A stretch of DNA of 64,000 nt. Source: Escherichia coli (GTDB taxonomy: Bacteria; Pseudomonadota; Gammaproteobacteria; Enterobacterales; Enterobacteriaceae). The notes under the pieces were generated by a model. The model worked only from the letters and a program-made list of their open reading frames with translations. It did no database searches and was not told the origin of the DNA. How positions within the stretch are numbered: position 1 is the stretch's first letter; each line of letters opens with the position of its first letter. The stretch lies in the NCBI RefSeq assembly GCF_048403405.1, contig NZ_CP183129.1; one strand, given 5' to 3'. The position numbers were made by a program, and so were the translations under genes. This document shows positions 158-46,416 of the stretch, piece by piece.

Positions 158-1198
158 ATGAGCGACAACATCCGTGTTGGGTTGATTGGGTATGGTTATG
201 CGAGCAAAACCTTCCATGCGCCCCTGATTGCGGGCACGCCCGGGCTGGAACTGGCGGTAATCTCCAGCAGCGATGAAACAAAAGTAAAAGCCGACTGGCC
301 AACGGTTACGGTTGTCTCTGAGCCGAAGCATCTGTTTAACGATCCCAACATAGACCTGATTGTCATTCCTACACCCAACGATACCCATTTCCCGTTAGCC
401 AAAGCGGCGCTTGAGGCGGGTAAACATGTGGTCGTTGATAAACCCTTTACCGTGACACTGTCACAAGCGCGAGAGCTGGAAGCGCTGGCAAAAAGCCTGG
501 GGCGTGTGCTGTCTGTATTCCATAACCGTCGCTGGGATAGCGATTTCCTGACGCTAAAAGGTTTGCTCGCGGAAGGCGTACTGGGTGAAGTTGCTTACTT
601 TGAGTCTCATTTTGACCGCTTCCGTCCGCAGGTGCGCGATCGTTGGCGTGAACAGGGCGGCCCTGGCAGCGGTATCTGGTACGATTTAGCACCGCATCTT
701 CTTGATCAGGCCATTACGCTATTTGGTTTACCGGTTAGCATGACGGTAGATTTGGCACAGTTACGGCCCGGAGCGCAGTCGACTGATTATTTCCACGCCA
801 TCTTGTCCTATCCGCAGCGGCGAGTCATTTTACACGGCACCATGCTGGCAGCCGCTGAGTCAGCACGTTATATCGTGCATGGATCCCGAGGCAGTTATGT
901 GAAATATGGCCTCGATCCACAGGAAGAACGTCTGAAAAATGGCGAGCGTCTGCCGCAGGAAGACTGGGGCTACGATATGCGTGATGGCGTACTTACCCGC
1001 GTGGAAGGTGAGGAACGTGTCGAAGAAACGCTGTTGACAGTACCAGGGAATTATCCGGCTTACTATGCGGCTATTCGTGATGCGTTAAATGGCGATGGTG
1101 AAAATCCGGTTCCGGCAAGTCAGGCAATCCAGGTAATGGAGTTGATTGAGCTGGGCATCGAATCCGCCAAACATCGCGCGACGCTGTGCCTTGCGTGA
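158..1198 (+). CDS. ydgJ: Gfo/Idh/MocA-family NAD(P)-dependent oxidoreductase YdgJ
   Basis: Supplied ORF 119..1198 contains the recalled 346-aa YdgJ from internal ATG at 158 (MSDNIRVGLIGYGYASK, Rossmann GxGxxG-like N-terminus); GAGAGG RBS upstream of 158. Confidence 0.9.
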   Translation: MSDNIRVGLIGYGYASKTFHAPLIAGTPGLELAVISSSDETKVKADWPTVTVVSEPKHLFNDPNIDLIVIPTPNDTHFPLAKAALEAGKHVVVDKPFTVTLSQARELEALAKSLGRVLSVFHNRRWDSDFLTLKGLLAEGVLGEVAYFESHFDRFRPQVRDRWREQGGPGSGIWYDLAPHLLDQAITLFGLPVSMTVDLAQLRPGAQSTDYFHAILSYPQRRVILHGTMLAAAESARYIVHGSRGSYVKYGLDPQEERLKNGERLPQEDWGYDMRDGVLTRVEGEERVEETLLTVPGNYPAYYAAIRDALNGDGENPVPASQAIQVMELIELGIESAKHRATLCLA

Positions 1199-1233: not shown

Positions 1234-2235
1234 TTACTTCGCAGCGACTTTTTCTCGCAGTGCGCGTTTTTCCTCTGCGCTGAGGAAAGCCATTTCCAGA
1301 CCATTAATCTGCGCCTGGCGGATTTGCTCGCGGGATAACCCAGCAGCCGGCGCGGCAACGGTATATTCGTGAATGATATCCACTCCCTGTACGCCGGGAT
1401 CGTCAGTGTTAATGCTGGCACGAATGCCATGCTCAAGGAACGTTTTCAGCGGATGTGCCGCCAGCTCTGCCACGGTGCTGGTCTGAATATTGGAGGTCAG
1501 ACAGGATTCAATACCAATTTGCTGCTCGGCGAGAAAATCCATCAGCGCCCGATCTTCAATGGCTTTTACGCCATGTCCAATACGTTCCGCCCCCAGTTCA
1601 CGAATCGCCTGCCAGATGCTTTCCGGCCCGGCAGCTTCGCCTGCATGGACGGTAATATGCCAGCCCGCATCACGCGCGCGGTTGAAGTGAGAAAGGAACA
1701 GACTTCCCGGGAAACCAAGTTCATCACCGGCTAAATCAAGTGCGGTAATCTGGTCACGATGGGCTAAAAAGGCCTCCAGCTCTTGCTGACAGGCAGCTTC
1801 ACCGAAGGTCCGGCTCATAATGCCGATAAGCTTCGCCTGCACACCAAAGGTACGGCAACCTTCACATACGCCATCGATCACCGCTTCGACAACACCCGCT
1901 ACAGGCAGCTGATGAGCCATTGCCATGTAGCCCGGTGAAAAACGCAGCTCGACATAGTGCAGGCCGTTACGGGATGCATCTTCAATGTTTTCAAATGCCA
2001 CGCGGCGACAGGCATCAAGAGAGGCGAGAACTTTAACGCCCCAGTCAAGTTTGGTCAGAAAGCTCACCAGATCGGGTTCGTTGGCAATGACCTGAACGTG
2101 GGGAATCAGTGTTGCCAGGGATTGTGCAGGAAGCGAGATATTATACTGGCGGCCAAGTTCAAGAATGGTCTGGGGACGAATGTTGCCATCAAGGTGGCGA
2201 TGGATATCAGTTAATGGCAGGGTGGTATCAATCAT
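1234..2235 (-). CDS. add: adenosine deaminase
   Basis: 333-aa translation with the HxH metal-binding N-terminus (DIHRHLDG) and full-length match to recalled E. coli Add. Confidence 0.95.
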
Positions 2236-39166: not shown

Positions 39167-39781
39167 CTATCGAAAGAGTGGTTTAACCGCGACAGGAATT
39201 AACAGTTGTGATTGCCATTGCGCCAGCGTTAAGCGAGCCAGTTCACCCAGTGCACGGTAGAAAGGGTGTTCTGCTTTTTCGATAAAAACGTCAAGAAAAC
39301 GTGTTGACCACGGAAAAAGGTGCCATGCCAGCAATTCTTCGCATTCTGTCTGGCGACCATTCTCCGCCAACCACGCAGCCATCAACAGCAGTGAACCAAA
39401 ATGATCTTCCGGTTCGTTTTGCTTCATTTCAAACTGAATGCCTTTCTCGCGCATCCACTGACGAAGTGCCAATGTTGAATCGCCAAACAGCACAGATTCG
39501 CGATCCAGCCAGACCGACCCCCACGGCGGTGATGGCAGAGCCCACGGACCGACAAACAAACGCTGCCAGGCCTGGGCGCGAGTCTCTTCACTCTGTGCCT
39601 GAAAAGCCGTCACCAGCGGCGCTAATGACGCTTCTGGTAGAGGCCACTGAGTTTCCCAGCCGTCACGGGTGAGTACCGCAACCAGAGGTGCGGCTTCCGC
39701 ACTCTCTGGAGCGTAATAAAACAGCGCGCCCAACACGCGCGCCGCGACAGAAAAATTATCTTGCTGTGAAAAATGGGTCAT
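39167..39781 (-). CDS. dmsD: Tat proofreading chaperone for DMSO-reductase-type enzymes
   Basis: Recalled 204-aa DmsD from internal start MTHFSQQDNFSVAARV (cat at 39779..39781); last gene of the ynfEFGH-dmsD operon. Confidence 0.9.
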   Translation of the reverse strand: MTHFSQQDNFSVAARVLGALFYYAPESAEAAPLVAVLTRDGWETQWPLPEASLAPLVTAFQAQSEETRAQAWQRLFVGPWALPSPPWGSVWLDRESVLFGDSTLALRQWMREKGIQFEMKQNEPEDHFGSLLLMAAWLAENGRQTECEELLAWHLFPWSTRFLDVFIEKAEHPFYRALGELARLTLAQWQSQLLIPVAVKPLFR

Positions 39782-39823
39782 TCCTAACATCCTGAAATGT
39801 GCGGGTTGCCCCGCACCAATTTG

Positions 39824-40678
39824 TTAACCTGCAATAGCCATTCCTACCGTCATGTGCAGGCCATAAAAGAGCACACGCCCGATCATCTCACCGCCAAGTA
39901 TGAGGATTAGCCCCAGAACAAGTCCGGCAACGTGAGGTTCACGGCGACGAATGAGCGGACAAAGCCAGCATCCTAGACCTGCGCATAACAATACCACACG
40001 CCAGACCTGTAAGGAGGCGTAATCTGGTACCAGTGCGCTGGCTTGTTGTACGGATGAGTGAATAGACGCCAGAGACAAACCTTGCAGCACAATCACCCCG
40101 GCACAAGCGATCAGCGCCAGAACGCTAATGATGGCAAAGGGTGTGGTATTAAATGTAATGCGGGCTGCCCGCAGAATTGCGGCAGCAAGTATTGGACCGC
40201 TCAACAATACTGTCAGGAAGAAAGCCAGCGTAGTGTAACCGTTATGCCAGGTTGGCACTGTGTCGATTTGATACACGCAGGTCATCATCCAGACGAAAAT
40301 GACGCCGAGCGCCATGCTGACAAGTAACCAGAGTTTCCCCAACGCTTGCGGCATTTTACCGATGACTGCCACCAGCCACCATAATCCGCCAACGGCAAAA
40401 AATATTGAACCGGCAGCAATTTCGTTACTCAGACCAGAAGCACCGATTCGATTCAGCGAGTTAAACGCTCGCAGTGGCGATCCCAGGTGCATGACAGAGG
40501 CAATAAACCCGATGCCCATCAACAGCCAGAGGAAAAACATGCCACGGACAATACGCTGACGGTCTGCGTCATTATTGGCGGCGAACCAGCCAATTCCGCT
40601 AACAATCAGCGCGCCTACTACGCATTGACCCAATACGGTAAAGATAACCAGTGGCCATTCATGCCATCCATTTCCCAT
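39824..40678 (-). CDS. ynfH: DmsC-type membrane anchor subunit
   Basis: Supplied ORF has a long extension; recalled 284-aa YnfH starts MGNGWHEWPLVIFTVLGQ (cat at 40676..40678), one nt after the ynfG stop. Confidence 0.9.
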   Translation of the reverse strand: MGNGWHEWPLVIFTVLGQCVVGALIVSGIGWFAANNDADRQRIVRGMFFLWLLMGIGFIASVMHLGSPLRAFNSLNRIGASGLSNEIAAGSIFFAVGGLWWLVAVIGKMPQALGKLWLLVSMALGVIFVWMMTCVYQIDTVPTWHNGYTTLAFFLTVLLSGPILAAAILRAARITFNTTPFAIISVLALIACAGVIVLQGLSLASIHSSVQQASALVPDYASLQVWRVVLLCAGLGCWLCPLIRRREPHVAGLVLGLILILGGEMIGRVLFYGLHMTVGMAIAG

Positions 40679-40679
40679 T

Positions 40680-41297
40680 TTACACTTCCTCCGGATTAGC
40701 CAGATAACCAGTGGTATCGCCGGTCGGGCGGCTATTGGCGTTAGGTTTGATAACGATATTGGGTTTTGTGAAATGCGCGCGCGGCAGTGGCGCGACGGCA
40801 GCCAGAGTGCCGTGCTTCTGGCGCAGCTCTTCAATTGGACCGAACTCAAGTGCACGCAGCGGGCAGGATTCGACACATATGGGTTGTTTCCCCTCGGCGA
40901 CGCGCGAATAACAACCATCGCACTTCGTCATGTGCCCTTTTTCAGCATTGTACTGTGGCGCGCCGTACGGACAAGCCATGTGGCAGTAGCGGCAGCCGAT
41001 ACAAACATCTTCATCAACCACCACAAAGCCATCTTCACGCTTATGCATTGCGCCGCTGGGGCAGACTTTTGTACATGCGGGGTCATCGCAATGGTTACAG
41101 GAGATGGAGAGATAATAAGCGAACACGTTCTGGTGCCAGACGCCATTATCTTCCTGCCAGTCGCCGCCAGCATATTCATAAATACGGCGGAAACTGACTT
41201 CCGGGCCAAGATCTTTAAAATCTTTGCACGCCAGTTCGCAGGTTTTACAGCCAGTACAGCGGCTGGAATCGATAAAAAATCCATATTGTGTGGTCAT
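40680..41297 (-). CDS. ynfG: DmsB-type 4Fe-4S ferredoxin subunit
   Basis: 205-aa protein with four Cys clusters (CxxCxxCxxxC-type). Confidence 0.95.
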   Translation of the reverse strand: MTTQYGFFIDSSRCTGCKTCELACKDFKDLGPEVSFRRIYEYAGGDWQEDNGVWHQNVFAYYLSISCNHCDDPACTKVCPSGAMHKREDGFVVVDEDVCIGCRYCHMACPYGAPQYNAEKGHMTKCDGCYSRVAEGKQPICVESCPLRALEFGPIEELRQKHGTLAAVAPLPRAHFTKPNIVIKPNANSRPTGDTTGYLANPEEV

Positions 41298-41307
41298 GGG
41301 CTACTCC

Positions 41308-43731
41308 TTAAACCTTTTCGATCTGGACAAGATTGCTGTGCGACGGGTTTCCCTTTGCCAGCGGTGAAGGGCGGTGAGAGGTCAGAATATTGATACTGCC
41401 GCCGTGATCGACCCGGTCACCAAACATATCCGCTTTAAGCCACGCACCTTGCCCGATGGCGGTAACGCCAGGCAGAATACGCGGAGTCACTTTTGCGGCA
41501 ATCAGCATTTCTCCATTATTGTTAAATACCCGCACGGTATCGCCATGACGGATACCGCGTGCCTGAGCATCAATAGGGTTGATCCACACCTCTTGTGGGC
41601 AGGCCTGCTGTAACACATCAATATTGCCGTAGCTGGAGTGGGTACGCGCTTTGTAGTGGAAGCCCGTTAGCTGCAGTGGATAGGTTTTCCGCAGGGGATC
41701 GTCCCAGCCATCAAAACCTGGGGTATACGCAGGAAGGGGATGAATAATTTCATCTTTTTTCAATTCCCAGGTATCCGCAATCGTCGCCAGTCGTTCAGAA
41801 TAAATTTCGATTTTCCCCGAAGGTGTTTTCAACGGGTTTGCCTGTGGATCTTCACGGAATGCGCGGAAAGCGACGTAGTGTTCTTCCGGGCATTTTTTCT
41901 TAAAGATCCCGGTCGTTTTCATCTCCTCGTAGTCGGGCATCTCAGGGTTACGTTCCTTCGTTTTCGCATGGAGATATTTGATCCATTCATGCTGACTGCG
42001 ACCTTCAGTAAAGGTTTGATAAACGTCTGGTCCTAAGCGTTTGGCGACTTCGCTCAGCATCCAGTAGATGGGTTTGCGTTCAAATTTTGCTGAGGTTGCG
42101 GGTTGGGCGAGGATCACATAGCCCATATTCCCGGCAGATTCGTGAGAGATAAGGTCTTCTTGCTCTGTTGGCATCAGGTCGGGCAACAGGATATCGCAAT
42201 ACTTAGCCGAGGCCGTCATGAAGTGGTCAATGCCAACAATCATCTCGCACTTGCTGTCATCCTGAAGCACCTCATGGGTGTGATTGATGTCGCCATGTTG
42301 ATTGATCAATGTGTTACTGGCGTAGCACCATAAAAACTTGATGGGGACATCCAGTTTTTCTTTTCCACGAACACCATCACGGGTCGCGGTCATTTCCGTA
42401 CCATGGTCGATGGCATCTGTCCATGTAAAGACGGAAATCTGCGTTTTAACAGGATTCTCAAGCATCGGGAACCATTCTACCCCCAGATCCCAGCTACCTT
42501 CGCGTACACCTGAGTTGCCGCCGTTTATGCCGACGTTACCGGTGAGAACGGAAAGCATGGCAATAGCGCGGGACGTTTGCTCGCCGTTGGAGTGTCGTTG
42601 TGGCCCCCAACCCTGACAAATATAAGCAGGTTTTGCTGAACCGATCTCTCGTGCCAACTGGATAATTTTTTCTGCCGGGATGCTGGTGATTTTTGCTGCC
42701 CATTCCGGCGTTTTAGCTATGCCGTCAGGCCCTTCGCCCAGAATATAGGCTTTATAATGCGCGTTACGTGGTGCGTTGGCGGGCAGCGTTTTTTCATCGT
42801 AACCAACACAATATTTGTCGAGAAATGGCTGATCGACCATGTTTTCAGTAATCAGTACCCAGGCAATCGCACAGGCCAGTGCGCCATCGGTGCCTGGGCG
42901 AATGGGCAGCCATTCATCTTCACGCCCGGCAGCAGTGTCGTTATAACGTGGATCGATGACGATCATGCGTGCGTTTGAACGTTCTCGGGCTTGCTCGACG
43001 TAGTAAGTGACACCACCGCCGCTCATCCGGGTTTCTGCCGGGTTATTTCCGAACATAACGACCAGTTTCGTATTGGCTATATCATCCGGGCTGTTGCCAT
43101 CATTGGCACCGAACATATAACTCATTGCGGCACTGATTTGAGCGGTACTGTAGCTGCCATAGCGACTGAGAAAACCACCGCAAGAGTTCATCAGACGGTA
43201 CGGGACGTTCGAGTTGGTGATGTTTCCGCCATCTACGCCTGTTCCGTACAGGACATGTACAGCCTCATTGCCGTATTCTTTCAGGATCCGCCGAAGATTA
43301 TCACTGATGGTATCCAGGGCTTCATCCCAACTTATCCGTTCAAATTTACCTTCACCGCGCTTGCCGACGCGCTTCATGGGATATTTCAACCTGTCAGGAT
43401 GATTCATCCGTCGGCGGATAGAGCGCCCGCGTAAACACGCCCGAACCTGATGATTACCGTAGACGTCGTCACCTGTCGTATCAGACTCCACCCAGTACAC
43501 GGTGTCATCTTTCACATGCAAACGTAACAGACAGCGGCTCCCGCAGTTAACGGTGCAGGAACTCCAGACCGCTTTCTCTTCTACCGGTGCCTCTGCCGCT
43601 CGGACCATTTGGGAAAATGGCAGAGTGAAAGCACTGCTTGCCAGCGCAAGACTGCCAAGTGCGGAGGTTTTCATCAGACTTCTACGGCTGATTTCAGCCT
43701 TCATGAGCGCCTCTGTGATATGGATTTTCAT
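41308..43731 (-). CDS. ynfF: molybdopterin oxidoreductase catalytic subunit (DmsA paralogue) with Tat signal
   Basis: About 807-aa protein with twin-arginine signal (SRRSLMKTSALGSLALA) and N-terminal Cys cluster; start taken at the second Met of the supplied ORF (MMKIH...), so it is uncertain by one codon. Confidence 0.9.
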   Translation of the reverse strand: MKIHITEALMKAEISRRSLMKTSALGSLALASSAFTLPFSQMVRAAEAPVEEKAVWSSCTVNCGSRCLLRLHVKDDTVYWVESDTTGDDVYGNHQVRACLRGRSIRRRMNHPDRLKYPMKRVGKRGEGKFERISWDEALDTISDNLRRILKEYGNEAVHVLYGTGVDGGNITNSNVPYRLMNSCGGFLSRYGSYSTAQISAAMSYMFGANDGNSPDDIANTKLVVMFGNNPAETRMSGGGVTYYVEQARERSNARMIVIDPRYNDTAAGREDEWLPIRPGTDGALACAIAWVLITENMVDQPFLDKYCVGYDEKTLPANAPRNAHYKAYILGEGPDGIAKTPEWAAKITSIPAEKIIQLAREIGSAKPAYICQGWGPQRHSNGEQTSRAIAMLSVLTGNVGINGGNSGVREGSWDLGVEWFPMLENPVKTQISVFTWTDAIDHGTEMTATRDGVRGKEKLDVPIKFLWCYASNTLINQHGDINHTHEVLQDDSKCEMIVGIDHFMTASAKYCDILLPDLMPTEQEDLISHESAGNMGYVILAQPATSAKFERKPIYWMLSEVAKRLGPDVYQTFTEGRSQHEWIKYLHAKTKERNPEMPDYEEMKTTGIFKKKCPEEHYVAFRAFREDPQANPLKTPSGKIEIYSERLATIADTWELKKDEIIHPLPAYTPGFDGWDDPLRKTYPLQLTGFHYKARTHSSYGNIDVLQQACPQEVWINPIDAQARGIRHGDTVRVFNNNGEMLIAAKVTPRILPGVTAIGQGAWLKADMFGDRVDHGGSINILTSHRPSPLAKGNPSHSNLVQIEKV

Positions 43732-43791
43732 CATTACTCACTTATTGCTTTTCAAACAAAATGTCATGTCAGAATTTATGGTTGTAGTGGG

Positions 43792-46218
43792 TTATATTTT
43801 TTCGATCTCGACCAGATTAGTGTGCTGCGGGTTTCCCTTCGCCAGTGGTGAAGGGCGCAGAGTGGTTAGCGTATTCACACAGCCGCCGTGGTCGATTTTA
43901 TCGCCAGACATATTGGCCTCGTGCCAGGCTCCCTGGCCCATAGCGCTAACCCCAGGGAGAATGCGTGGTGTTACTTTGGCTGGTAGCCGAACTTCGCCAC
44001 GATGGTTAAACACCCGCACCATATCGCCGTTGGCAATCCCACGTTTCTGTGCATCTATAGGGTTGATCCACACCTCCTGACGGCAGGCTGCCTTCAGGAC
44101 ATCAATATTGCCGTAGGTCGAGTGGGTACGGGATTTGTAATGGAAACCAAACAGTTGCAGTGGGAAGGTTCTACGTTCAGGGGAGTCCCAGCCTTCAAAG
44201 GTTGAGGCATAAACTGGCAGTGGGCTTATCACTTCATCTTTTTCCAGTTCCCAGGTACGGGCAATTTCCGCCAGCTTGCTGGAATAAATTTCAATCTTAC
44301 CGGAAGGCGTTTTAAGTGGATTTTCCTCGGGGTCGTCACGAAATGCTTTGTAGGCGACAAAATGACCATTGGGATCTTTACGCTTATAGATACCCATTTT
44401 TTTCAGTTCGTCGTAAGACGGTAACGCCGGATCTTTGGCAAGCATTTTGGCGTACAGATGTTGTAACCATTGTTCCTGCGTGCGACCTTCTGTGAACTTT
44501 TGATAGACGTCAGGTCCAAGACGTTTCGCGACCTCACTCAGGATCCAGTAAATCGGTTTGCGTTCGAATTTTTCGCTGGTGACTGGCTGGAGGAAAATGA
44601 GATATCCCATGTTACCGGCGTAGTCGTTAGGAATTATATCTTCCTGCTCAACGGTCATCAGGTCTGGCAGCAGAATGTCGGCATATTTTGCCGATGAGGT
44701 CATAAAGTTTTCGATGACCACAATCATTTCGCATTTCGATTCGTCCTGCAGAATTTCATGCGTTTTGTTGATGTCAGAATGCTGATTAACCAGGGTATTT
44801 CCCGCGTAGTTCCAGATGAACTTAATGGGCACATCCAGTTTATCTTTGCCCCGGACGCCGTCGCGGATTGCCGTCATTTGCGGGCCATGATCGATAGCAT
44901 CTGTCCAGCTGAAGCAGGAGATTGACGTTTTGACCGGATTATCCAGCACCGGTAGGCGTTCTATGGTAATGGTATAGGTCGATTCACGCGCGCCACTATT
45001 CCCGCCGCTGATGCCGACATTGCCCGTCAAAATAGGCAACATAGCAATAGCGCGTGCGGTCAGCTCACCGTTTGCCTGGCGTTGCGGCCCCCAACCCTGG
45101 CAGATATAAGCGGGTTTTGCTGTGCCAATTTCACGCGCCAGTTTGATGATACGGTCCACCGGGATACCGGTAATTTGCGAAGCCCACTGCGGCGTTTTCG
45201 CTGTTTTATCGTCACCTTCACCAAGAATATAGGCTTTATAGTGACCATTTTTTGGTGCATCTGCGGGTAAGGTTTTTTCGTCATAGCCGACGCAGTATTT
45301 ATCGAGAAAAGGTTGATCAACGAGATTTTCGTTAATCAATACCCAGGCAATACCCGCAACCAGCGCGGCATCGGTGCCCGGGCGAATAGGTAGCCATTCG
45401 TCTTCACGACCAGCAGCTGTATCGGTATATCGCGGATCGATAACAATCATTTTTGCGTTCGATTTCTCGCGCGCTTTTTCAAGAAGATAAGTGATGCCAC
45501 CGCCGCTCATGCGGGTTTCTGCCGGGTTGTTACCAAACATCACGACCAGCTTGCTGTTTTCAATATCCGTGGTGCTGTTGCCATCATTACTGCCGTAGGT
45601 GTAGGGCATGGCACAGGAAATTTGCGCGGTGCTGTAGGAGCCATACTGGTTGAGTGAACCGCCGTAGCAGTTCATCAGGCGTTTGACCGCCGAGGCGGAT
45701 GGCGAAGAGCGGGTCATATTGCCGCCAACGATCCCTGAAGAGTACTGAATATATACAGCCTCATTGCCATATTGTTCGACGGTTTTTTTCAGGCTACTGG
45801 CGATAGTATCCAGGGCTTCATCCCAGCTAATCCGTTCGAATTTGCCTTCGCCGCGTTTGCCCACGCGTTTCATTGGGTAATTCAAGCGATCGGGATGATT
45901 AATACGCCGACGGATGGAGCGACCGCGCAAACAGGCACGTACTTGATGATTGCCATACTCGTCGTTGCCGGTGTTGTCAGTTTCCACCCAGGTCACTTCA
46001 TTATCTTTAACATGCAGACGAAGTGCACAGCGGCTACCACAGTTGACGGAACAGGCACCCCAGACCACTTTCTCGCTGGCCTGCTGTACCGCTGCCGCTG
46101 CACTGCGCAGGGTGAACGGTAAAGAAAAACCGCCTGCAGCCAGCGCCAGAGAACCTATCGCGGTAGATTTAACGAGTGTTCTGCGGCTGATGCCCACCAT
46201 TTGTTCATTTTTGGACAT
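43792..46218 (-). CDS. ynfE: molybdopterin oxidoreductase catalytic subunit (DmsA paralogue) with Tat signal
   Basis: 808-aa protein with twin-arginine signal (SRRTLVKSTAIGSLALAAG); tandem paralogue of ynfF. Confidence 0.9.
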   Translation of the reverse strand: MSKNEQMVGISRRTLVKSTAIGSLALAAGGFSLPFTLRSAAAAVQQASEKVVWGACSVNCGSRCALRLHVKDNEVTWVETDNTGNDEYGNHQVRACLRGRSIRRRINHPDRLNYPMKRVGKRGEGKFERISWDEALDTIASSLKKTVEQYGNEAVYIQYSSGIVGGNMTRSSPSASAVKRLMNCYGGSLNQYGSYSTAQISCAMPYTYGSNDGNSTTDIENSKLVVMFGNNPAETRMSGGGITYLLEKAREKSNAKMIVIDPRYTDTAAGREDEWLPIRPGTDAALVAGIAWVLINENLVDQPFLDKYCVGYDEKTLPADAPKNGHYKAYILGEGDDKTAKTPQWASQITGIPVDRIIKLAREIGTAKPAYICQGWGPQRQANGELTARAIAMLPILTGNVGISGGNSGARESTYTITIERLPVLDNPVKTSISCFSWTDAIDHGPQMTAIRDGVRGKDKLDVPIKFIWNYAGNTLVNQHSDINKTHEILQDESKCEMIVVIENFMTSSAKYADILLPDLMTVEQEDIIPNDYAGNMGYLIFLQPVTSEKFERKPIYWILSEVAKRLGPDVYQKFTEGRTQEQWLQHLYAKMLAKDPALPSYDELKKMGIYKRKDPNGHFVAYKAFRDDPEENPLKTPSGKIEIYSSKLAEIARTWELEKDEVISPLPVYASTFEGWDSPERRTFPLQLFGFHYKSRTHSTYGNIDVLKAACRQEVWINPIDAQKRGIANGDMVRVFNHRGEVRLPAKVTPRILPGVSAMGQGAWHEANMSGDKIDHGGCVNTLTTLRPSPLAKGNPQHTNLVEIEKI

Positions 46219-46416
46219 AACTCACTCCCTGTTCTTTATCGTTATATAAAAGTTTATATATTGAATATTTAGCGCGCTAACAATAGAGGGAGTCTACCTA
46301 TTTTGGGTTAAGAATTATTAATCCATATCAATAGAAGGGTATGAGTAATAAGGTGGGATTATGTTGTATGTTCAAATCGCCGGATGTGTCGTATCCGGCG
46401 TGCAGTCGATAATGTA

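Follow-up and report, generated by a model that had tools for sequence, protein, structure and literature searches.

Diverged tandem genes ynfE and ynfF of Escherichia coli and rare in-register hybrids between them in other strains

The ynfEFGH-dmsD operon of E. coli (b1587-b1591) is a paralogue of DmsABC and encodes a selenate/tellurate reductase, according to papers citing Lubitz & Weiner 2003, Guymer et al. 2009 and Fujita et al. 2021 (PMC5203670; PMC12724226; Fujita 2021 via PMC12096835). The operon has been described, with 71% identity between YnfE and YnfF, which are treated as paralogous isoenzymes, YnfF being the minor contributor in Salmonella (PMC5203670; PMC12724226), and the region from -60 to +24 of ynfF is reported to confer repression by RyhB (PMC4666370). 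Short direct repeats are also known to undergo deletion independently of RecA, through sister-strand exchange or template switching (Lovett et al. 1993, as cited in PMC12074656; PMC5426353; PMC7145654), and PMC12074656, citing Watt et al. 1985, gives a RecA MEPS of 23-27 bp for efficient recombination. DmsA is the nearest relative of the two catalytic subunits: it belongs to the same family (TIGR02166), has the same three Pfam domains, is exported by Tat with the DmsD chaperone and shares 64-69% identity with YnfE and YnfF; in E. coli its gene lies at another locus. Two patterns of exchange between duplicates serve as references here. The tufA/tufB pair is an example of concerted evolution by gene conversion in bacterial duplicates, and Lepore-type pairs, such as haemoglobin delta-beta and the red/green opsins, are more than 90% identical and recombine via long identical tracts.

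The window (the whole 64,000-nucleotide stretch of DNA that was analysed) is an ordinary segment of the E. coli chromosome and holds this same operon on a single strand (Table 1): two A subunits, then the Fe-S subunit, a DmsC-like anchor and DmsD. YnfE scores 1795.9 bits against NCBIfam NF041885 (curated cut-off 1675) and YnfF 1774.5 bits against NF041884 (curated cut-off 1650). Both contain PF04879 (Fe4S4), PF00384 (molybdopterin) and PF01568 (MGD-binding), and their translations show a twin-arginine signal (SRRTLVK in YnfE, SRRSLMK in YnfF) and a CxxCxxxC motif; with the three domains and the Tat signal, both are A subunits of the DmsA/YnfE type within the DMSO reductase family. The two genes are adjacent in the same orientation and both are intact, with no hybrid in the window. 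Over the pair, the sequence matches K-12 at 98.3% and strain TUM14771 at 100% identity, and the ynfE annotated in the latter is 100% identical to that of the window. Gene order, domains and the published identity all agree with the known operon, from which the window itself does not differ. The gene names, layout and tandem paralogy assigned by the first-pass annotation are therefore right, as judged by open reading frames, NCBIfam cut-offs and annotation. We also observed a dmsA-like gene directly after ynfE in Serratia, Rahnella and Ewingella.

Table 1. Features of the ynfEFGH-dmsD locus in the window and the identity tracts discussed in the text
Feature	Position	Strand	Position in ynfE (nt)	ynfF partner	Remarks
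ynfE	43792..46218	-			upstream catalytic (A) subunit gene; 2427-nt ORF, 808 aa
ynfE-ynfF spacer	43735..43791	-			57 nt; 60 nt with the RefSeq ynfF start
ynfF	41308..43734	-			downstream paralogous A-subunit gene; longest ORF 2427 nt, 808 aa; RefSeq start 43731, giving 807 aa
ynfG-ynfH-dmsD	39167..41297	-			remainder of the operon
ynfG	40680-41297	-			shared Fe-S subunit; ORF, family match, annotation
ynfH	39824-40678	-			membrane anchor; ORF, family match, annotation
dmsD	39167-39790	-			Tat chaperone; ORF, family match, annotation
Type B tract, ynfE side	45515..45528	-	691-704	43031-43044	AACCCGGCAGAAAC, 14 nt
Type C tract, ynfE side	45190..45198	-	1021-1029	42706-42714	AAAACGCCG, 9 nt
Type A tract, ynfE side	45065..45072	-	1147-1154	42581-42588	8 nt; AACGGCGA in the parent proxy G3/10, AACGGTGA in the window
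Type D tract, ynfE side	44926..44931	-	1288-1293	42442-42447	AAAACG, 6 nt
Last shared tract ahead of the ynfE stop	43799..43808	-		41315-41324	AGATCGAAAA
29-mer, exact copy	43829..43857	+			near the ynfE 3' end
29-mer, second copy	41345..41373	+			near the ynfF 3' end; 2 mismatches (27/29)

The first-pass annotation had also described long near-identical DNA stretches shared by ynfE and ynfF, and these are absent. In a protein-guided codon alignment the genes are 70.1% identical over 2403 aligned nt (71% for the proteins), with 79%, 84% and 48% identity at codon positions 1, 2 and 3, respectively, and in the window no stretch of 50 nt or more reaches 95% identity. No exact run exceeds 20 nt (17 nt is the maximum in K-12), and the best windows of 30, 100 and 300 nt contain 29, 83 and 230 matches. 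When the codon columns were shuffled 2000 times, the means for these four measures were 20.9, 28.1, 82.5 and 228.3, and the observed values were reached in 25-64% of the shuffles. Given that run lengths and best windows equal the shuffled values, no segment exceeds what a uniform 70% predicts, and the existence of unusually similar segments is ruled out. Nor are runs of identical synonymous codons above chance between the two genes (longest 7, permutation mean 9.0); where the residue is identical, the same codon is used in 52% of columns, while codon usage by itself predicts 43%. A separate repeat search returned blocks of 273-300 nt with 72-78% identity at spacings of 2484 or 2496. The 29-mer that had been quoted as an example does recur near both 3' ends, with 0 matches in the shuffles, and the 123 nt surrounding it are 76% identical between the genes. 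The suggested pairwise alignment thus confirms the short segment and not the long near-identity, and it comes close to the outcome, protein-level similarity with diverged DNA, that had been named in advance as refuting the claim. Synonymous sites are close to saturation and the similarity is largely at the level of protein.

A pattern like that of tufA/tufB, likewise duplicates within one genome, would place paralogues closer to each other than to their orthologues, along the entire gene or within tracts; it fails for ynfE and ynfF. Orthologues from 80 Enterobacterales species share 79-96% identity with E. coli YnfE, against 71% for its own YnfF, and E. coli YnfF has 89-91% identity with its orthologues in Salmonella, C. 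amalonaticus and Pseudocitrobacter. The Kimura distance between YnfE and YnfF is 0.355, against 0.126 for YnfE between E. coli and Salmonella and 0.236 for YnfE between E. coli and Budvicia. A neighbour-joining tree gave bootstraps of 100 for the YnfF clade and 99 for the YnfE clade, and 262 quartet sites supported orthology, as compared with 64 each for the paralogue grouping and the null topology. Among ten E. coli strains, 46/87 and 23/63 SNPs matched the paralogue, no run of them was carried by one strain, and no conversion tract was found. Gene conversion was thus negative in three tests (species quartets, tree and SNP tracts), and the suggestion that the pair is a substrate for it is unsupported. 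As to the age of the duplication, the tree has a long YnfF stem (0.168 vs 0.029, for which long-branch attraction is possible), and columns polarised with DmsA comprise 6 E-derived and 19 F-derived, 3 of the 6 being common to nearly all distant YnfE orthologues, a dating that appears suggestive, not decisive. The feature is already known, and the paralogues behave as expected of old duplicates.

Strains with ynfE/ynfF fusions, which the first-pass annotation had predicted, do exist: we observed four independent in-register hybrids in E. coli. A flank-joining search for a missing gene unit in 5,426 complete E. coli genomes identified 10 (0.18%) that lack exactly one unit and represent two events (types A and B), and draft assemblies supplied two further events (types C and D). 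All four junction types are in register with 2484 bp lost, the spacer between the genes is deleted in every fusion, and each complete-genome hybrid is an intact 2427-nt ORF (808 aa) with a clean switch from ynfE-type to ynfF-type sequence. Like Lepore-type hybrids, these ynfE'-'ynfF genes are in-frame products that begin as the upstream gene and end as the downstream one, with exactly one repeat unit lost; the parent genes differ from Lepore-type pairs in being 70% identical, in junction tracts of 6-14 nt and in that no reciprocal triplication was seen. A junction query for a tandem triplication found 5290 places in 5289/5426 genomes, the extra place lying on a plasmid. The ynfEFGH-dmsD literature retrieved makes no mention of hybrid alleles in other strains, and no prior report of ynfE/ynfF hybrids was found in the literature searched, which may be incomplete; the fusions are a modest new detail.

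The longest identity between the genes, 20 nt, is below the 23-27 bp MEPS, and the pair thus lacks an efficient RecA/RecBCD substrate. We infer that short-homology or homeologous sister-strand exchange, or template switching, probably generated the hybrids, rather than classical RecA/RecBCD recombination. The hybrids resemble RecA-independent short-repeat deletions in having direct repeats a few kb apart and junction identities below the RecA MEPS; ynfE and ynfF differ from simple short repeats in that the flanking 70% homeology may help the copies align. Under a null of microhomology only, the probability of in-register junctions is ~0.003 for all four events, a figure that includes types C and D, which were found via a full-length protein cluster that favours in-register products, and ~0.19 for the two unbiased events alone; an in-register bias of the junctions is only weakly established.

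From these observations, we hypothesize that the membrane-bound molybdoenzyme YnfEFGH, exported by Tat with the chaperone DmsD, can have either YnfE or YnfF as its catalytic subunit, and that the two genes evolve as two separate orthologous lineages whose remaining similarity, evenly spread, would be kept by protein-level selection and not by ongoing DNA exchange. The direct orientation and 2484-bp spacing of the copies would allow rare misalignment; an exchange resolved within an identity tract of 6-14 nt would then delete exactly one repeat unit and leave a single in-frame hybrid, with the 5' part of ynfE and the 3' part of ynfF, between ynfD and ynfG. To this reading, i.e. old diverged tandem duplicates with no concerted evolution and rare short-tract in-register deletion, we assign a probability of roughly 0.85. 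Tolerance of the hybrids probably reflects extensive redundancy between the two subunits and an operon that the cell can do without; this view of dispensability is based on ynfF pseudogenes (546), operon deletions (89) and IS insertions.

An opposite reading would be that recent duplication or continuing gene conversion keeps long near-identical segments, which then provide a substrate for efficient homologous recombination. Tandem direct orientation, the 27/29 match near both 3' ends and the existence of fusions are what one would expect from it, but the longest run and the best 100-nt window (83%) both equal the shuffled expectation, identity at third positions is 48%, orthologues resemble each other far more than the paralogues do, conversion-like quartet sites equal the null with no SNP tracts, and fusions occur in only 0.18% of genomes. 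No fusion of types A-D crosses over in the quoted 29-mer. We consider this reading very improbable, and what survives of the proposed substrate for unequal recombination is that fusions occur, rarely (10/5,426) and through 6-14-nt tracts outside the region of the 29-mer. Equally hard to credit is that the hybrids are assembly artefacts. Repeats can collapse in assemblies, and type D possibly comes from a single isolate; however, ~30% of positions distinguish the two paralogues, a divergence well beyond what assemblers would merge, and the junctions are all clean, in frame and at homologous positions. Moreover, three sources (NIH, Alberta and Virginia) contributed complete genomes with an identical type A (carriers ECONIH4, CAVP776 and 0H15-0H26), whose exact protein is on 68 contigs. 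Type B is present in two separate submissions, JCC-EE 7 and FELIX_MS533, and types C (protein P0020, loci L101/L102) and D (protein P0021, loci L103/L104) occur in both NCBI and independent Logan assemblies; the loci of each hybrid type are mutually 100% identical.

It might also be argued that loci with a single gene preserve an ancestral one-copy state, into which ynfF was inserted later in some lineages. Most Enterobacterales genera do have ynfE-ynfG-ynfH-dmsD without ynfF, and in these genera the 3' end of ynfE and the spacer (AAGGTTTAAGGAGTA...ATG) resemble the ynfF-ynfG junction, which makes Escherichia whittamii ambiguous. Yet the E. coli hybrids are built from ordinary ynfE alleles in their 5' parts and ordinary E. 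coli ynfF alleles in their 3' parts (in type A, 100% identical over 1.9 kb to ynfF of G3/10) and therefore require a two-gene parent, and the single-gene genera contain no ynfF-type blocks; old E/F chimeras were accordingly rejected there, the longest F-type run being 2 at 99 diagnostic columns. We regard an ancestral one-copy state as improbable, if slightly less so than the two readings above. In E. whittamii the switch from ynfE-type to ynfF-type sequence takes in the final 5 nt together with the spacer, and the AGATCGAAAA tract would be the junction at which ynfF was lost. We rejected this species as a clean fifth fusion, given that single-gene genera have the same 3' end and spacer; for the same reason the case for a secondary loss of ynfF is a phylogenetic one, namely that Salmonella, C. 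amalonaticus and Pseudocitrobacter have an orthologous ynfF and the Escherichia ancestor should therefore have had it as well. The exchange process that we propose for the E. coli hybrids may also be how E. whittamii, and perhaps other genera, lost ynfF.

Little is at stake in the window itself. The pair offers a quantified case in which tandem genes 70% alike, with no run above 20 nt, still give rise to rare in-register hybrids without gene conversion. The hybrids join the signal peptide and Fe-S end of YnfE to the C-terminal part of YnfF and are without the RyhB-targeted ynfF leader, the spacer between the genes falling inside the -60 to +24 region; with domains swapped and this leader lost, they might differ in regulation or substrate range. 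That YnfE-YnfF hybrids form again and again in natural E. coli populations, persist in at least one lineage (type A) and are active enzymes altered in these respects is a speculative proposal, and one we think unlikely. If it were true, the hybrids would be ready-made natural domain swaps for separating the functions of YnfE and YnfF; the natural chimeras could help to map differences between the two proteins. Hybrids A and D score below both NCBIfam cut-offs and B and C barely above that for YnfF. We stress a caution for annotation and pangenome work: existing annotation either calls the hybrids YnfF or gives them a generic 'DmsA/YnfE/YnfF family' name.

The same caution extends to other lesions of the locus, which are commoner than fusions. 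A ynfF deletion pseudogene is present in 546 complete genomes (~10%), including strains used in studies of these reductases, the operon is deleted in 89 genomes, and IS insertions occur as well. The remaining deletions found in the genome search, those of AZ 191, FDAARGOS_1285, Z1323HEC0422/0399 and the UPEC 536 type, join out-of-register positions that share 0-3 nt of microhomology, and we rejected them as paralogue-mediated events. Frequent pseudogenisation is likewise mentioned in PMC13322260.

The region 41308-46218 (4911 nt) is 100% identical in six complete E. coli genomes and 95-99% identical to most other complete E. coli genomes, and matching genomes such as TUM14771 annotate the pair as ynfE and ynfF. 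The feature is the already-known ynfEFGH-dmsD operon, within a window that is as a whole a core region running from ydgJ to eamA, near tus. Both A-subunit translations carry twin-arginine signals and Pfam Fe4S4, molybdopterin and MGD-binding domains. The ORF layout bears out the first-pass annotation in describing ynfE and ynfF as adjacent, co-oriented paralogues. It had also claimed long near-identical DNA stretches, which we do not find: in a protein-guided codon alignment the genes share 71% amino-acid identity, as previously published (PMC5203670), and 70% nucleotide identity (79%, 84% and 48% at codon positions 1, 2 and 3), and the longest common exact run is 20 nt, against a mean of 20.9 when codon columns are shuffled. 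The best 30-, 100- and 300-nt windows contain 29, 83 and 230 matches (shuffle means 28.1, 82.5 and 228.3), and the observed run and window values are attained by 25-64% of shuffles. The 29-mer offered as an example is exact at 43829-43857; its second copy, at 41345-41373, matches at 27 of 29 positions, and the surrounding 123 nt are 76% identical between the genes. Identical-residue columns use the same codon in 52% of cases, where codon usage alone predicts 43%, and runs of identical synonymous codons between the two genes are not above chance length. An independent repeat search of the window returned 273-300-nt ynfE/ynfF blocks of 72-78% identity. Taken together, the run, window, codon and repeat results show an even, moderate similarity left by protein constraint.

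The proposed survey for ynfE/ynfF fusions in other strains proved productive. We searched 5,426 complete genomes with a query in which the 2-kb upstream and 2-kb downstream flanks were placed end to end; its halves merge into one match only in genomes that lack about 2 kb or more of the sequence between them. Joined matches reached 80% or more of the query length in 12 genomes, and in ten of these the match spans exactly 6027 bp, one 2484-bp gene unit short. In each of these ten, a single intact 2427-nt ORF lies between ynfD and ynfG, its ynfE-type sites giving way cleanly to ynfF-type ones; two alleles, types A and B, are represented. Type A is identical over 6.4 kb across its strains, and its protein is found on 68 contigs by exact-sequence look-up; the ynfF of G3/10, its parent proxy, is 100% identical to its 3' part. 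Types C and D, found in the protein cluster of type A, have the same locus context, and each of them occurs in an NCBI assembly as well as in a Logan assembly made independently. The chimerism is visible in the NCBIfam scores, hybrids A and D falling below both the YnfE and YnfF cut-offs and B and C barely above that of YnfF. Because the scores fall around curated cut-offs, naming is mixed: four hybrid proteins (P0016, P0001 and the type C and D proteins, P0020 and P0021) are annotated as YnfF or as a generic 'DmsA/YnfE/YnfF family' protein, and name-based pangenome counts will therefore overlook hybrids. We found no prior report of them in the literature searched. No tandem triplication was seen, the ynfE-ynfF junction query matching 5290 places in 5289 genomes. 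One plasmid record in the E. coli genome collection carries a copy of the junction region.

Features of the ynfE-ynfF locus in the window, and crossover intervals of hybrid genes in other strains
Feature	Position	Strand	Details
ynfE	43792-46218	-	ORF; NCBIfam YnfE 1795.9 (cut-off 1675)
ynfE-ynfF spacer	43735-43791	-	57 nt
ynfF	41308-43734	-	NCBIfam YnfF 1774.5 (cut-off 1650); RefSeq start 3 nt later
ynfG, ynfH, dmsD	downstream of ynfF	-	operon order
Hybrid type A	ynfE nt 1147-1154		8-nt tract AACGGCGA; ECONIH4, CAVP776, six 0H isolates
Hybrid type B	nt 691-704		14-nt tract AACCCGGCAGAAAC; JCC-EE 7, FELIX_MS533; K-12-like
Hybrid type C	nt 1021-1029		tract AAAACGCCG; protein cluster of type A
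Hybrid type D	nt 1288-1293		tract AAAACG; protein cluster of type A

The hybrids are like Lepore-type products of unequal crossover, but the ynfE and ynfF copies are far more diverged. PMC12074656, citing Watt et al. 1985, puts the minimal efficient processing segment (MEPS) for RecA/RecBC recombination at 23-27 bp; unlike efficient RecA substrates, the two genes lack the required length of identity, their longest shared run being 20 nt in the window and 17 nt in K-12. Since these identities are below the MEPS and the junction tracts measure 6-14 nt (longer tracts were available between the genes), we infer that hybrids would arise when misaligned sister copies, on rare occasions, undergo short-homology or homeologous exchange, for which a RecA-independent sister-strand mechanism (Lovett et al. 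1993, cited in PMC12074656; discussed in PMC5426353) is a candidate route. The in-register bias exceeds the microhomology-only expectation (about 0.003), a figure inflated by how types C and D came to light. Elsewhere in the survey, deletions were out of register and showed microhomology of 0-3 nt.

We scanned for orthologues in one genome per bacterial species. YnfE orthologues occur in 80 Enterobacterales species (79-96% identity), every one of them closer to E. coli YnfE than is the E. coli paralogue YnfF, and most genera have the order ynfE-ynfG-ynfH-dmsD; a ynfF orthologue (89-91%) behind ynfE is confined to Salmonella, Citrobacter amalonaticus and Pseudocitrobacter. The duplication looks old, because in a neighbour-joining tree YnfF forms a single clade (bootstrap 100) that is sister to all YnfE (bootstrap 99). 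A faster-evolving YnfF drawn to this position by long-branch attraction is an alternative for which the long YnfF stem (0.168 vs 0.029) and the few polarised synapomorphies leave room. Gene conversion, also put forward by the first-pass annotation, gains no support from the orthologue identities or the tree, nor from site patterns in E. coli/Salmonella quartets, where 262 sites favour orthology and 64 group the paralogues, equal to the count for the null third topology; quartets built with Citrobacter or Pseudocitrobacter give a similar picture. Among ten E. coli strains, paralogue-matching minor alleles form no tract carried by one strain, and single-gene genera contain no YnfF-type blocks. 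The pair thus behaves differently from concertedly evolving duplicates.

Nine loci from Serratia, Rahnella, Ewingella and Budvicia link the two operons. In the first three genera the gene directly after the ynfE-like one resembles dmsA (75-82% identity to E. coli DmsA), and dmsB, dmsC and dmsD come next; in Budvicia a full ynfE-G-H set adjoins a full dmsA-B-C-dmsD set. These gene orders hint at a former adjacency of the ynf and dms operons. In C. amalonaticus (locus L028, 10957-11836) two DmsB-like matches overlap in the ynfG region, suggesting that the Fe-S subunit gene is internally duplicated or carries a frameshift.

Escherichia whittamii (locus L013, 6001-8440) has ynfE-ynfG-ynfH-dmsD and lacks ynfF. 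Its single gene keeps ynfE-type sequence as far as the last shared tract (AGATCGAAAA) and is ynfF-type thereafter, with ynfF-type last codons and then the ynfF-ynfG spacer. An in-register loss of ynfF would account for this structure; because single-gene genera have the same 3' end, the case is a phylogenetic inference.

That fusions are tolerated is plausible, since the paralogues are described as isoenzymes, YnfF contributes little in Salmonella (PMC5203670, PMC12724226) and the locus frequently decays. A ynfF pseudogene with two internal deletions, of 580 bp (ynfF nt 715-1294) and 274 bp (nt 2069-2342), occurs in 546 of the 5,426 complete genomes; its record coordinates resemble those of the YnfF locus of EC958 (ST131), the strain used in a published ynfF expression study (PMC12096835). 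A 6379-bp deletion (window about 40010-46390) in 89 genomes, including UPEC 536, F11 and ECONIH2, runs from 30 nt past ynfD to ynfH nt 669 with 3-nt microhomology, removing ynfE, ynfF, ynfG and most of ynfH and retaining dmsD. The pair is also interrupted by IS1 in ynfE (AH04), by IS30 in ynfF (ECONIH5, ABWA45, LR536430) and by an ISEc52-family element (2EC1). In a 2026 pangenome study, ynfE and ynfF rank with the metabolic genes that most frequently become pseudogenes (PMC13322260).

All fusions lack the ynfE-ynfF spacer, which falls inside the -60 to +24 region that, according to PMC4666370, brought a ynfF-lacZ fusion under repression by the sRNA RyhB; regulation of the hybrids may be altered. 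The excerpted Table 1 of that paper does not include ynfE among RyhB-repressed genes, so regulation may differ between the two paralogues even though they share an operon.
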